Virus genome (UHGV): UHGV-2171516
Reading direction: 5' to 3' (one strand)
Length of the DNA stretch: 10,665 bases
Origin: a virus
Part shown: positions 2,707-6,284 of the stretch, one piece after another
How positions within the stretch are numbered: position 1 is the stretch's first letter
How the letters are laid out: the number at the start of each line of letters is the position of its first letter
The notes under the pieces: generated by a model
The model's database searches: none
Told to the model about the DNA's origin: nothing
Seen by the model: only the letters and a program-made list of their open reading frames with translations
Made by a program: the position numbers and the translations under genes

Positions 2707-3563
2707 TGCGTACTGATAATAACGAACATAAAGCACTATTCACCATCCCGACGGCAGCGTACAGCTCCGCCCTCGCAAACATCAAGCCCCTGCCAGAGCA
2801 ACGGAGAATCACCGGGCATAAGCAGACTGATGCTTATCTTTGGGTGCTGGAGGTTATCCGTCTGAACGAACCCGCACATCTGGATGCTGCTGAGGCTGCG
2901 CTGGTGAAAATTAAAATTTCCCCAAAAGAGGCTCAGGAACGCTATTCGCGTTATCTGCTGGCGAATGGTTACGAACCTTTCCAGGTTGCGTTCGGCATCA
3001 TCGGCATGGATAACCCTGCGCAGGTTATCAGGAACGCCCGGGAGAACATCAAAAAAGCGGCATCAGTCAGGGCTACGTTTGGTAGCTATGAAGCAGCGCT
3101 CGAAGATGTGGAAGCAGAGCGGGTCATCAGGTCTTCCCAGAAATTTATCAACGATCATCTCTGGGGCTGGACTGCGGCAGAGAAAAAAGCCGGAAGCATT
3201 GGCGGCAGCCGCATGAACGAAATTGATGAACAGCGTCGGGCATTTGTTGATGGATATCGCGATGTGCTGCCTGAGCCTTATACGCTGTCTGATGTTGTTC
3301 GCGAGTTCGTTTACTGGGACTGGCTCTACAGTGTTCGCCACACTGCAACTAAAGAACAGGGCGATGAGTTTGGTTACTCTGAGCATCACGAATCGGTATA
3401 TGACCGCGAGCGCTACCTTGAAAAATTGCTGGCAACCATCAAACCGGTGACACGCGCTGAAGCCGTGGAGGTGTGCCGCTGGTTTCTGGCAAGTGGTAAG
3501 GGTGAATGCATGGAAGACGACGGTGCAGCGGTCATTCTCAATCTGGTTGGGGAGTGTGAATAA
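2706..3563 (+). CDS. Hypothetical phage protein, function unknown (sits where the nin region lies in lambdoid phages)
   Basis: 285-aa ORF in codon-like frame. Start overlaps the primase stop (TAATG) and its stop overlaps the next start, so it is part of the coupled operon. No motif I recognise. Confidence 0.6.
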   Translation: MRTDNNEHKALFTIPTAAYSSALANIKPLPEQRRITGHKQTDAYLWVLEVIRLNEPAHLDAAEAALVKIKISPKEAQERYSRYLLANGYEPFQVAFGIIGMDNPAQVIRNARENIKKAASVRATFGSYEAALEDVEAERVIRSSQKFINDHLWGWTAAEKKAGSIGGSRMNEIDEQRRAFVDGYRDVLPEPYTLSDVVREFVYWDWLYSVRHTATKEQGDEFGYSEHHESVYDRERYLEKLLATIKPVTRAEAVEVCRWFLASGKGECMEDDGAAVILNLVGECE

Positions 3564-4378
3564 TGAAGCTTGAGGCATCGCTAAAATACTTCAGTCCTCA
3601 GGGAATGTATATCGGCGACGATGTGAAAGGAACCTCTCCGGAACGTCTTACAGGCACCGATGTTATGGCGGCTATTGGTACCACCAGTAATCGTGAGCGG
3701 TTTGGCCTGGCGGCCTTCTTCGGGAAGGCCGGTATCAGCAAGACTGATGAGCAGATGGCAGTCCAGGCGCTGGCGCGTCACGCGATGGAAATTGCACCGA
3801 AGAATGTGCGTAAAGCAGCTGGTGGTGAATTTGGCTGGTGTATGCTGGTACTGGCTCAGTTTGCTTTTGCTGAGTATTCCCGATCGGCGGCCACCAGCGT
3901 AACATGCCATAGTTGCAGTGGTACCGGACTAACACCCCGTAAGCAGGTCATTCGTAAGGTTTCATACCCATGGGGTAAAGCACCATATTGGGCCAGTCGC
4001 TCCCGTGCTGTTCGACCGTCAGACTGGGAAAGATGGACAGAGGTAACGGAAGTTGTACCAGTCGTTTGCGATGTATGTAAAGGGAAGGGAGTGATAAGTG
4101 CCAGGTGTCGTTGTGGTGGAAAGGGAGAGGTACTGGACCGCAAAGCCACAAGCGAGCGTGGTGTGCCAGTGTTTAAAATCTGCGAGCGTTGTAGTGGAAA
4201 GGGATTCGTATCTATCAAATCAGCTAATGTTCATCGAGCTATTCAAATATACATTCCCGATCTGCACCAGTCTTCATGGTCGCGCAATTGGAAACCATTC
4301 TATGAAAAATTGATTGATATCCTGCATCAAGGTGAGCGGCATGCGGCTAGAGAATTTGAGAAGGCAACGAGTTACTGA
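3563..4378 (+). CDS. Q: Putative late antiterminator Q (phage 82 / QuuQ-like size class) with four CxxCxGxG zinc-finger repeats
   Basis: 271-aa ORF. Last gene before a promoter-like element, a strong terminator and the tRNA cluster, which is the Q position in lambdoid and Stx phages. Four repeats CHSCSGTG, CDVCKGKG, CRCGGKG, CERCSGKG. GGGGAG SD upstream; start overlaps the previous stop. Family assignment is by position and size, not sequence recall. Confidence 0.55.
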   Translation: MKLEASLKYFSPQGMYIGDDVKGTSPERLTGTDVMAAIGTTSNRERFGLAAFFGKAGISKTDEQMAVQALARHAMEIAPKNVRKAAGGEFGWCMLVLAQFAFAEYSRSAATSVTCHSCSGTGLTPRKQVIRKVSYPWGKAPYWASRSRAVRPSDWERWTEVTEVVPVVCDVCKGKGVISARCRCGGKGEVLDRKATSERGVPVFKICERCSGKGFVSIKSANVHRAIQIYIPDLHQSSWSRNWKPFYEKLIDILHQGERHAAREFEKATSY

Positions 4379-4417: not shown

Positions 4418-4447
4418 TTGACTTTGCATAAAATTGTCTTGTATCAT
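4418..4447 (+). promoter_or_regulatory. Candidate late promoter (pR'-like): -35 TTGACT 4418-4423, -10 TATCAT 4442-4447, 18-bp spacer
   Basis: Sigma70-like hexamers directly downstream of the Q-like gene, about 40 nt upstream of a strong intrinsic terminator. This matches the lambdoid pR'-tR' arrangement. Not validated. Confidence 0.35.
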
Positions 4448-4488
4448 TTTAATTATGGGGTTTAGCGCCAATATAAAAATTAACACGG

Positions 4489-4512
4489 AACCCGCTTTAT
4501 AGCGGGTTTTTT
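4489..4512. terminator. Rho-independent terminator (tR'-like), usable from both directions
   Basis: 8-bp stem AACCCGCT / AGCGGGTT with TTAT loop, followed by a T6 run on the + strand. It lies 2 nt beyond the stop of the minus-strand gene 4515-5459, so it can also end that transcript. Confidence 0.65.
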
Positions 4513-4514
4513 AA

Positions 4515-5459
4515 TTATGGTAAATTTTCCATAAATTTCTTAAATAGTAATTTGTCTTTATTGCTTACAGATTTCTGAATGTTAAGTAATGCACGTAAAG
4601 GTTTAAGGTTTTCTCTTGTTGCAAAAACCCTGGATTTTTCTAAGCGTTCCTGAGCAAAGTTAAAGCGTTCTCTTAATCTTGAAACCTTTATTCCAAAAGA
4701 CAACACCTCTCTTTCAGTCAATTCATCTGGGGTACATTTGTTTAATTTTTCCAGAACCATTTTTATATCTCTTTCATAAAGAAGAGCAATGTCATAATCA
4801 TTCAGCAAGCATTCAGGGTATTGTATTACCCCAATAAGTTCATTTACGGTTTTGTTTTTGTTGTTAACTTTTGGAGCTGAGTCGCTTGTTTGCTTCTGGG
4901 ACATAATTTCGTCCAGTTCTAGCTCTTCTGTATTTTTTAATCTTGAGCGGAAAACACGCCCATCACCAGAAGCAGCCATCTTTTTCAATGTTTGATAAGC
5001 CGCACGCCCGATGATTTTAGGGTCTTTCATGTCAAGTATTCTATGAGCAACCTCAGTTAGTGATGGACGCCCAGATTCGATTTTGGCTTTGAGTTTGTAA
5101 TAGCTAAAAATATCATCTTTTGCCTCTTTAAGTGCGGTAAGTAAGCGATGGAAATCTGCTTTTCGGCAAAGTTCTATTGCTAAATTATCAAATGCTATAC
5201 CAAAAACATTAGTTCCACATACATGGCCGATATTCGTTTCAAATCCTTCTTTCGTAACTACCAGAAATCCCTTTTTATGCCCTTTGCGGCAATTTGATTT
5301 TCCACATGGAATTTCCTCTGGTAGGTCATCGTAGTAACCAAAAACGTCAGAGAGTTGCTGATCATTTAACTCTAATTTGGGATAGTAAGACTCTCTCGCC
5401 TGAATTTCTGCCCAGTCATTCACGCGAATAAAACTTTCGCCATTCTTGAGAAAAATCAT
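4515..5459 (-). CDS. Hypothetical 314-aa protein on the opposite strand; AT-rich moron, candidate accessory or defence gene
   Basis: Long ORF antisense to the phage backbone, visibly AT-rich against GC-richer flanks. Good SD AAGGA about 5 nt before the ATG (reverse complement of 5457-5470). Flanked by an AT-rich upstream region 5460-5580 and the terminator at 4489-4512. Cysteine/histidine cluster CGKSNCRKGH...HVCG; no family recognised. Confidence 0.7.
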   Translation of the reverse strand: MIFLKNGESFIRVNDWAEIQARESYYPKLELNDQQLSDVFGYYDDLPEEIPCGKSNCRKGHKKGFLVVTKEGFETNIGHVCGTNVFGIAFDNLAIELCRKADFHRLLTALKEAKDDIFSYYKLKAKIESGRPSLTEVAHRILDMKDPKIIGRAAYQTLKKMAASGDGRVFRSRLKNTEELELDEIMSQKQTSDSAPKVNNKNKTVNELIGVIQYPECLLNDYDIALLYERDIKMVLEKLNKCTPDELTEREVLSFGIKVSRLRERFNFAQERLEKSRVFATRENLKPLRALLNIQKSVSNKDKLLFKKFMENLP

Positions 5460-5583
5460 ACTCGTCCTTACTGTGGTTAGATTTAAAGCATATCCATTTG
5501 ATATTTAATCACTATTCTTTTTGTATTTCACCTAAAACGATTTGTTTTCATGTTTAATGTGACTGATGTATCATCACTCCCCC

Positions 5584-5656
5584 AGCCATTTTAGCTAAAT
5601 GATGAGAGCGAGTTATAATCGCCAGGTCGCTGGTTCAAATCCAGCAAGGGCCACCA
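5584..5656 (+). tRNA. tRNA-Ile-like (ileX/ileZ-like) with intact 3' half but degenerate 5' acceptor and D arm; possible pseudogene or fragment
   Basis: 3' portion ATAATCGCCAGGTCGCTGGTTCAAATCCAGCAAGGGCCACCA closely resembles the E. coli tRNA-Ile2 3' half as I recall it (T arm GCTGG/CCAGC, acceptor 3' strand AAGGGCC, discriminator A, CCA). The upstream sequence does not supply a matching GGCCCTT acceptor strand or a clean D stem. The anticodon loop reads GTTATAA (UAU) in my fold. Confidence 0.4.
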
Positions 5657-5663
5657 TCACATA

Positions 5664-5740
5664 CCGCCATTAGCTCATCAGGATAGAGCGCCAGCCTTCG
5701 AAGCTGGTTGCGCGGGGTTCGAGTCCTCGATGGCGGTCCA
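5664..5740 (+). tRNA. tRNA-Arg (anticodon UCG)
   Basis: Hand-folded cloverleaf: acceptor CCGCCAT/ATGGCGG, D stem GCTC/GAGC, anticodon stem CCAGC/GCTGG with loop CTTCGAA, T stem CGGGG/CCTCG (one G-U) with loop TTCGAGT, discriminator T plus CCA. 77 nt. Confidence 0.75.
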
Positions 5741-5754
5741 TTTATCGGCATTCT

Positions 5755-5831
5755 GCGTTGTTAGCTCAGCCGGACAGAGCAATTGCCTTCTAAGCAATCG
5801 GTCACTGGTTCGACTCCAGTACAACGCGCCA
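5755..5831 (+). tRNA. tRNA-Arg (anticodon UCU, argU/argO-like)
   Basis: Hand-folded cloverleaf: acceptor GCGTTGT/ACAACGC, D stem GCTC/GAGC, anticodon stem ATTGC/GCAAT with loop CTTCTAA, T stem ACTGG/CCAGT with loop TTCGACT, discriminator G plus CCA. 77 nt; resembles E. coli argU. Confidence 0.85.
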
Positions 5832-5846
5832 CACTTATTTTTTTCT

Positions 5847-5868
5847 GGCTTGCTTCGGCGGGCCTTTT
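5847..5868 (+). terminator. Weak intrinsic terminator-like hairpin after the tRNA cluster
   Basis: Stem GGCTTGC / GCGGGCC (two G-U pairs) with TTCG tetraloop, then TTTT. Confidence 0.3.
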
Positions 5869-5896
5869 AGTTGCTGAAAAAGAAAACACCAGGTGG

Positions 5897-5930
5897 TTAG
5901 CAGGGTATCCGTTACCCTGCTAAATTTTTA
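5897..5930 (+). terminator. Strong rho-independent terminator
   Basis: Perfect 11-bp stem TTAGCAGGGTA / TACCCTGCTAA with 5-nt loop TCCGT, followed by A then TTTTT. Confidence 0.65.
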
Positions 5931-6144
5931 AATACCTCACAATTCAGCAAGTTGATGATTGTCTGGCTGTCAGGGATTTTGTTAAAAAAATCCTGCATGG
6001 TGAATCCCCCTGAGCGGAGGGGCGACTGGTGACGGTATAATCTCTGATTATCAAAACGAGAATGACGCGGGTTTAGTGGCACCGGGCTGAACTCACCGGG
6101 AGGCACCCGGCACCATGTGCATGATGATACAGATACGCGGCTTT

Positions 6145-6171
6145 AGCCCCTCTCCGGAGGGGCTTTCTTGT
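6145..6171 (+). terminator. Terminator-like hairpin
   Basis: 8-bp GC-rich stem AGCCCCTC / GAGGGGCT with TCCG tetraloop, then TTCTTGT. Confidence 0.45.
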
Positions 6172-6175
6172 GGGC

Positions 6176-6202
6176 AAAAAAAAAGCCCGAGTGGGTTCGG
6201 GC
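6176..6202 (-). terminator. Rho-independent terminator oriented for the minus strand
   Basis: On the + strand an A9 run followed by stem GCCCGA / TCGGGC with loop GTGGGT. On the minus strand this is a hairpin followed by T9. Confidence 0.5.
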
Positions 6203-6257
6203 AACAGCATGAGATATACATTTTTATAATCGAATGGATTTTAACCAGAATTCATAA

Positions 6258-6284
6258 GGCTGCGCAACTGCGTGGCCTTTTTCG
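6258..6284 (+). terminator. Terminator-like hairpin upstream of nanS-p
   Basis: Stem GGCUGC... / ...GCGUGGCC (includes G-U pairs) followed by TTTTTCGTATT. Confidence 0.4.

Follow-up and report, generated by a model that had tools for sequence, protein, structure and literature searches.

We asked what kind of element lies at positions 5584 to 5656 on the plus strand of the window, the whole 10,665-nucleotide stretch of DNA analyzed here, where a well-preserved tRNA 3′ half is preceded by a 5′ half that resists folding. A first-pass annotation, made from the letters alone, had offered three readings, namely, a decaying version of the Stx-phage tRNA for AUA, an intact but atypical tRNA, and an attachment-site scar. 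Our analysis favors the first. With a probability of about 90%, 5584-5656 is a pseudogene of phage ileZ, the rare-codon tRNA-Ile2 gene of Stx-type lambdoid phages, whose clean 3′ half was acquired by exchange. We refer to this 73-nt tRNA-Ile2(CAU) pseudogene, which has an ACCA end, as psi-ileZ. The assignment draws on relaxed ARAGORN searches, Rfam, alignments, and the record GenBank ON470586, which labels an identical sequence tRNA-Pseudo-TAT; psi-ileZ is an already known kind of pseudogene, labeled as such in at least one public record. The window belongs to an stx-negative lambdoid prophage of Escherichia coli, and its 5400-5900 segment (a 501-base query) was 100% identical to E. coli SCU-106 and JNEC-KY202. 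As background, the CAU anticodon of tRNA-Ile2 reads AUA once it has been lysidine modified, C34 being the target of TilS, and ileZ was reportedly named by Plunkett et al. in 1999 in phage 933W.

At default settings, ARAGORN called only two tRNAs over the window, tRNA-Arg(tcg) at 5664-5740 and tRNA-Arg(tct) at 5755-5831, and left 5584-5656 uncalled. With thresholds lowered to 80% (-ps80), it returned a tRNA-Ile(tat) with bounds of exactly 5584-5656, in a fold with weak stems (A1.C72 and A5.G68 mismatches, about two D-stem pairs, and a 4-bp anticodon stem). The Rfam tRNA model (RF00005) matched 5585-5653 with 32.6 bits (E = 0.001), marginally above its gathering score of 29, and in its alignment the anticodon stem was interrupted by a 4-column gap, with nonstandard pairs there as well as in the acceptor and D stems. 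Intact ileZ copies scored 70.3 to 72.5 bits on the same model, about 40 bits above psi-ileZ; degenerate copies scored 36 or 31.3 to 32.6 bits depending on the state of their anticodon loop (states A and B, respectively, described below), and the Stx2i-type copy gave no Rfam tRNA hit at E ≤ 1. The minimum free energy calculated by RNAfold for psi-ileZ was −18.2 kcal/mol (z = −1.0 versus shuffles), for a structure from which the acceptor helix was absent, compared to −31 to −33.5 kcal/mol (z = −3.4 to −4.0) and full acceptor pairing for intact relatives. Across the loci examined with default ARAGORN, none of the 11 degenerate copies was called, while all 11 intact copies were called as tRNA(cat), which ARAGORN labels Met from the CAT anticodon and which PGAP and GenBank label Ile. 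PGAP annotated nothing at psi-ileZ in the three E. coli genome records viewed in detail, and all 22 matching E. coli genomes list "none" as the annotation under the psi-ileZ match. A 25-nt segment of the psi-ileZ 3′ part had a single occurrence in the window and none in 200 shuffles, so the match is far above chance. The metazoan-mitochondrial modes of ARAGORN, which would accommodate a D-armless tRNA, gave low-quality alternatives only, including an antisense "Gln," and that candidate was dropped.

We aligned psi-ileZ with MAFFT to intact ileZ from Stx2a_WGPS6 (AP012539) and NCTC9112 and to E. coli K-12 ileX (NC_000913.3 3215598-3215673). It could be aligned with ileX and ileZ along the entire gene, its 5′ half base by base with the Stx2-phage gene, and every difference from intact ileZ fell 5′ of position 5615. 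From A35 to the terminal CCA (5615-5656, plus strand), all 42 of 42 positions were identical to intact ileZ, a stretch that spans the rest of the anticodon loop, the 3′ strand of the anticodon stem, the variable loop, the T arm, the acceptor 3′ strand, A73, and CCA. The near-canonical, CCA-ended 3′ part described in the first-pass annotation was thus clean as stated, although the identical stretch is 42 nt long and not 45 to 50. The degenerate part (5584-5614, plus strand) carried a G1>A change and one extra nucleotide (A5588) in the acceptor 5′ strand, a C13>A change in the D arm, replacement of AGTGGTGA by AATGATGA in the D loop with loss of the conserved G18G19, a 4-nt deletion inside the GAGCGAGCGA repeat at the junction of the D and anticodon stems, and C32>G (5612) and C34>T (5614) in the anticodon loop. 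Most of these lesions are GC>AT changes, and the linked block to the left is AT rich. With K-12 ileX, psi-ileZ has the T stem, A73-CCA, and most of the anticodon arm in common; intact phage ileZ differs from ileX at 6 to 7 of 76 positions (7 for NCTC9112), to which the window copy adds the disabling lesions and T34 in place of C34. By descent, as judged from these alignments, psi-ileZ belongs as a pseudogene to the ileX/ileY/ileZ-type tRNA-Ile2 family.

The lesions were not compensated. Pairs 2:71, 4:69, and 13:22 were broken in all three pseudogene rows of the alignment and three anticodon-stem pairs were absent, in contrast to the 6:67 difference between ileX and ileZ (C-G to U-A) and the A31-U39 to G31-C39 change in the intact loci L011 and L068, both of which are compensated. 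Only five of seven acceptor pairs could form in either register, the mismatches being 2:71 and 4:69 in the Rfam/MAFFT register and A1.C72 and A5.G68 in the ARAGORN register. A mismatch at 1:72 is a feature of initiator-type tRNAs and disfavors EF-Tu binding. The first-pass annotation had found no matching acceptor 5′ strand or D stem, and this was borne out: the 3 to 4 D-stem pairs and G18G19 expected of a functional tRNA were lacking. The deleted repeat is a tandem GAGC-GAGC-GA that extends over the D-stem 3′ strand, position 26, and the anticodon-stem 5′ strand, and the loss of one 4-nt unit suggests replication slippage as the origin of the deletion. With one GAGC/GCGA-repeat unit gone, the remaining bases would suffice for just one of two helices, that of the D stem or that of the anticodon stem; accordingly, a 4-bp anticodon stem (GCGA/UCGC) is possible only with bases of the D-stem 3′ strand. 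The sole fold with a 7-nt loop then gives GUUAUAA, with an atypical G32 and the UAU anticodon already read by the first-pass annotation. This anticodon is a by-product of decay, T5614 having replaced the C34 that defines the CAU of tRNA-Ile2. The T arm (GCTGG-TTCAAAT-CCAGC), A73, and CCA were those of intact ileZ. From this predicted structure, we infer that the psi-ileZ product would be unable to work as an elongator tRNA. Such decay explains why default finders (ARAGORN and that of PGAP) skip psi-ileZ while covariance models give a marginal hit.

The gene neighborhood places psi-ileZ in the slot of a known cluster. The window contains, in order, replication genes, Q, pR′/tR′-like sites, a reverse ORF, psi-ileZ, argN, argO, STnc100 and AsxR matches, and a gene for an esterase with SASA and DUF6645 domains. 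Q is a 271-amino-acid allele of the antiterminator (3563-4378, plus strand; Pfam PF03589, 4.6e-51). Just after it, a consensus scan identified on the plus strand a promoter-like site, TTGACT-18-TATCAT, at 4418-4447 and a terminator-like hairpin at 4487-4510, which from their position we read as candidate pR′ and tR′. The AT-rich reverse ORF (4515-5459, minus strand; 314 amino acids), in a block with a GC content of 30 to 42%, matched phrog_7003, a family of unknown function (E = 4e-118), and had no Pfam or PADLOC hit. The two genes downstream of psi-ileZ are intact: argN, tRNA-Arg(UCG), at 5664-5740 (plus strand; 56 bits on Rfam) and argO, tRNA-Arg(UCU), at 5755-5831 (plus strand; 68.1 bits), both called by ARAGORN and annotated as tRNA-Arg by PGAP, argN in SCU-106. 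The order, orientation, and spacing of psi-ileZ, argN, and argO fit the lambdoid ileZ-argN-argO cluster that follows Q, with the reverse ORF interposed, and psi-ileZ heads its cluster as ileZ does in the Stx2 phages, with the same 7-nt spacer to argN. Together with the alignment, the uncompensated lesions, the 4-nt deletion, and the loss of about 40 bits, this shared slot argues for the first-pass suggestion of a decaying copy of the Stx-phage AUA tRNA. Since candidate pR′ lies upstream, the tRNA cluster would fall in the late transcript. A weak sigma-70-like site, TTTTCA-18-TATCAT (5545-5574, plus strand; 9 of 12 matches in the consensus scan), about 10 nt upstream of psi-ileZ is a possible local promoter of the cluster. 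From its location downstream of both sites, psi-ileZ is probably transcribed; at most, it would be a leader of the argN-argO precursor that is discarded after an RNase P cut at argN and degraded.

We then compared how intact and degenerate copies are distributed. A scan of IMG/VR with the tRNA 3′ half returned at least 120 loci. In about 110 of those listed, the intact 5′ half was nearly invariant while the immediate upstream flank varied freely, a signature of purifying selection on intact ileZ. Full-length ileZ fills the same slot in about 2,900 E. coli genomes; in most Stx2 phages and many prophages, the match begins at about 5590 (5585-5590 in the E. coli genome search), where the slot is annotated as ileZ (tRNA-Ile) and argN and argO come next. 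The degenerate 5′ motif was present in 8 IMG/VR loci, in the GenBank phage vB_EcoS-611R1, and in 22 of 5,426 complete E. coli genomes. A search of one representative genome per species gave 0 hits, and we thus have no evidence of the motif outside E. coli prophages and viral contigs. The degenerate half is tightly linked to what lies to its left. The reverse ORF and its upstream region accompanied it in all 11 degenerate loci and were absent from the 124 others compared, and the 3′ end of the Q allele and the pR′/tR′ region occurred in the same 22 of 5,426 E. coli genomes as psi-ileZ. The reverse ORF is limited to this rare 271-amino-acid Q allele (22 of 5,426 genomes, including stx2i prophages), and an "empty site" with the same Q/pR′/tR′ and no reverse ORF was found in 0 of the 5,426 E. 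coli genomes and 0 of the IMG/VR loci listed. Within the degenerate family, the 5′ half was no more variable than its flanks (π of 0.03 versus 0.02), a comparison of short segments at low diversity in a small, closely related sample that shows neither relaxed nor extra constraint.

Intact copies were themselves not uniform. In phage ileZ (for example, L002:2496-2571 and L005:2500-2575), the topmost pair of the anticodon stem is an A27.C43 mismatch, in place of the G27.U43 of host ileX (L135:4599-4674); about 110 phage copies among the matches listed conserve this mismatch, so it is apparently tolerated or selected. Some IMG/VR variants still called as tRNAs carry changes, C32>T in L020 and L122 and a D-loop T>A in L041 and L046. 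Another (L116:1231-1306) has TTCAGCCCAG in the D arm together with an A31.C39 mismatch and may be an independent early stage of ileZ decay.

Two relatives were informative for comparison with the window. Escherichia phage vB_EcoS-611R1 carries the identical pseudogene (ON470586.1 15892-15960) in the same Q/reverse ORF/argN/argO context, with 96% identity over the region and only SNPs in the flanks; its lysis genes follow directly, whereas the window instead has the STnc100/AsxR matches and the esterase gene. The stx2i prophages, such as CFIAFB20180511, share the degenerate 5′ half and the linked Q/reverse-ORF module with the window but, unlike it, have a decayed 3′ half (10 of 38 positions changed), a destroyed argN, and stx2i after argO. 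In CFIAFB20180511, argN (L004:2760-2860) retains its acceptor and T arms but has a replaced or scrambled anticodon arm with a 4-nt insertion, and only argO, directly upstream of stxA2i, is intact. The decayed 3′ half gave 0 hits in IMG/VR. Literature searches on the ileZ-argN-argO cluster and on the 933W tRNA genes returned nothing relevant. One 2026 paper describes stx2i prophages with "tRNA-pseudo-tRNA-Arg" as opposed to a complete Ile-Arg-Arg set (PMC13641118).

How could a pseudogene retain a perfect 3′ half? Eight lesions fall in the 5′ part of psi-ileZ and none in the 3′ part; for equal halves and uniform decay, the probability of this outcome is 0.5^8, or about 0.004, which makes uniform decay unlikely. 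The sequence from the anticodon loop to argO was often nearer between a degenerate locus and an intact one than among degenerate loci, with identities of 100% for L132 and L098, 99.6% for L127 and L005, and 99.1% for L001 and L008 (degenerate and intact, respectively). A second type of downstream cluster was also found, with a G in the T loop, no spacer before the next tRNA, and a glyT-like tRNA-Gly(UCC) further on. It follows a degenerate 5′ half in L126 (14031-14256) and L130, where psi-ileZ is succeeded by Arg(UCU) and then Gly(UCC). L133 has it after an intact 5′ half, and there the same Gly comes behind a variant gene and a tRNA-Thr(UGU). In L131 (4848-4989), only the start of this second type is shared, the second tRNA being truncated and followed by unrelated DNA. 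The content of phage tRNA clusters headed by ileZ or psi-ileZ is fluid, and the Q/reverse-ORF module was seen with Arg-Arg, Arg-Gly, and stx2i contexts. In L133 (570-884, minus strand), the order is ileZ, an 82-nt gene, Thr(tgt), and Gly(tcc); the 82-nt gene, called Leu(cag) by ARAGORN, resembles an Arg tRNA with a rewritten anticodon arm.

Taken together, these data suggest that the joint between the Q/reverse-ORF module and the shared tRNA cluster most likely lies within psi-ileZ itself, 3′ of the deletion. Homologous exchange with the intact clusters of other lambdoid prophages would repeatedly overwrite the sequence to the right of this joint, and the clean 3′ half most likely reflects such exchange and not retained function. 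The Stx2i-type lineage would fit as one in which the right side escaped such renewal. The anticodon loop is also in keeping with this model. The window has state B (GTTATAA), and a group of relatives (L050, L129, L132, and ERL04-3476) has state A (CTCATAA, anticodon CAT), in which CAU is kept and all other psi-ileZ lesions are shared. In a tree built from the linked left block (1,069 nt), state A was nested within state B lineages, which makes state A derived, that is, a revertant. We had considered state A as an intermediate toward state B, an order that this linked-module tree reverses. The joint return of positions 32 and 34 to the intact bases is expected of a conversion tract from intact ileZ that reaches the deletion.

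The other readings of the locus fared less well. The suggestion that the tRNA is intact but atypical (its D arm might be reduced, for instance, and its UAU might read AUA without lysidine and thus independently of TilS) did not survive, and we regard it as extremely unlikely. The relaxed ARAGORN call of a tRNA-Ile(tat), with its 4-bp anticodon stem, U33, A37, intact T arm, A73, and CCA, and the Rfam score above the gathering threshold both speak for such a tRNA. Yet two of the seven acceptor pairs are mismatched whichever register is chosen, including 1:72 in the register that starts at 5584, the D stem has about two pairs without G18G19, G32 is unusual, and no lesion is compensated; the predicted fold lacks an acceptor helix and is no better than shuffles. 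Default ARAGORN and PGAP rejected the gene in every locus checked, a GenBank record labels it pseudo, and one clade reverted UAU to CAU with all other lesions kept. At default settings, ARAGORN did not return the high-scoring, canonical call that the first-pass annotation had named as its refutation. It is scarcely more than conceivable that the tRNA 3′ half was left or duplicated by the integrase-mediated insertion of the reverse ORF or another element, as the notion of an attachment-site scar would have it. Integrases that target tRNA genes cross over in the tRNA 3′ half, which is the part that is clean here, and the boundary of the AT-rich block does lie at the tRNA; a recombination joint inside the tRNA is the element of this proposal that stood. 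The 5′ half, however, is a diverged ileZ homologue and not foreign DNA, and about 2,900 genomes hold a full-length ileZ in the slot. The 3′ half had no further copy in the 10.7-kb window (≤3 mismatches) and no direct repeat in the flanks, and no integrase gene is annotated in the region, so that within 10.7 kb psi-ileZ has none of the foreign junction, second copy, and integrase that mark an attachment-site remnant. The flanking-repeat search gave a single perfect repeat, 12 nt long and AT rich (4447 and 4509), which has no relation to the tRNA. Moreover, the lesions are linked to the whole Q-pR′/tR′-reverse-ORF block and not to the ORF alone, with no empty site in 5,426 genomes.

A further alternative to simple decay is re-use of the remnant as a regulatory element, whether an internal promoter of argN-argO, a leader or processing element in the tRNA precursor, or part of the region upstream of the reverse ORF. 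State B reads AGTTATAAT at 5611-5619, which contains a perfect −10 at 5614-5619 with a G at −14, and both G5612 and T5614 improve the extended −10 match relative to intact ACTCATAAT. All deep branches of the degenerate family keep state B, which speaks for re-use, but the best −35 matches at only three of six positions, and the consensus scan made no call at 5614-5619. The state-A clade lost both bases without visible consequence; provided that the 97.7%-identity group, of which one member was checked, is state A, this clade makes up 11 of the 22 genomes. Another promoter-like site (5545-5574) lies upstream, the cluster is probably also part of the late transcript, and the idea arose post hoc; we consider it quite improbable. 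More broadly, the remnant might not be inert, either serving in state B as a promoter or leader for argN-argO or offering its 3′ half as a preferred crossover "linker" for module hopping, which we hold to be unlikely.

We therefore return to psi-ileZ as a decayed ileZ with an exchanged 3′ half. As such, it illustrates cleanly how a mosaic joint can fall inside a phage tRNA gene, and its added value is modest; its overall importance is small, the mosaic joint being the sole mildly instructive point. The cluster in about 2,900 E. coli genomes provides common homology, through which exchange, and not selection, can preserve a perfect 3′ half in a pseudogene. "Half conserved" should accordingly not be read as "half functional." What this prophage lineage supplies is two arginine tRNAs (UCU and UCG) and not an AUA-reading tRNA. 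By standard wobble, the anticodons UCU and UCG read AGA/AGG and CGA/CGG. The first-pass annotation had proposed codon counts as a guide to the tRNAs needed, and in nine genes of the window, we counted 7.4 AUA, 6.3 AGA, 5.2 AGG, and 5.2 CGA codons per 1,000. Compared with E. coli averages, the excess in these genes is larger for AGA and AGG than for AUA. The bias, in nine genes only, agrees weakly with the arginine tRNAs having been kept and ileZ lost. The reverse ORF has the highest AUA and AGA use in the window, with 19 AUA and 29 AGA plus AGG codons per 1,000.

Some further features of the region were noted. The reverse ORF occupies the slot between Q/tR′ and the tRNA cluster where lambdoid phages bear accessory cargo genes. 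The 12-nt perfect direct repeat, TTTTAATTATGG, at 4447-4458 and 4509-4520 flanks the tR′-like hairpin, with the first copy directly after the pR′-like −10 and the second running over the stop codon of the reverse ORF; the repeat may reflect chance in AT-rich DNA or be a trace of block assembly. Terminator-like hairpins were found at 5847-5864, 5897-5923, 6145-6164, and 6256-6279. Finally, this prophage without stx has a full-length STnc100 match (5966-6175, 158.7 bits) and an antisense match to AsxR, the "anti-stx2 sRNA" (6180-6232, minus strand), whose score of 63.0 is exactly the gathering score.
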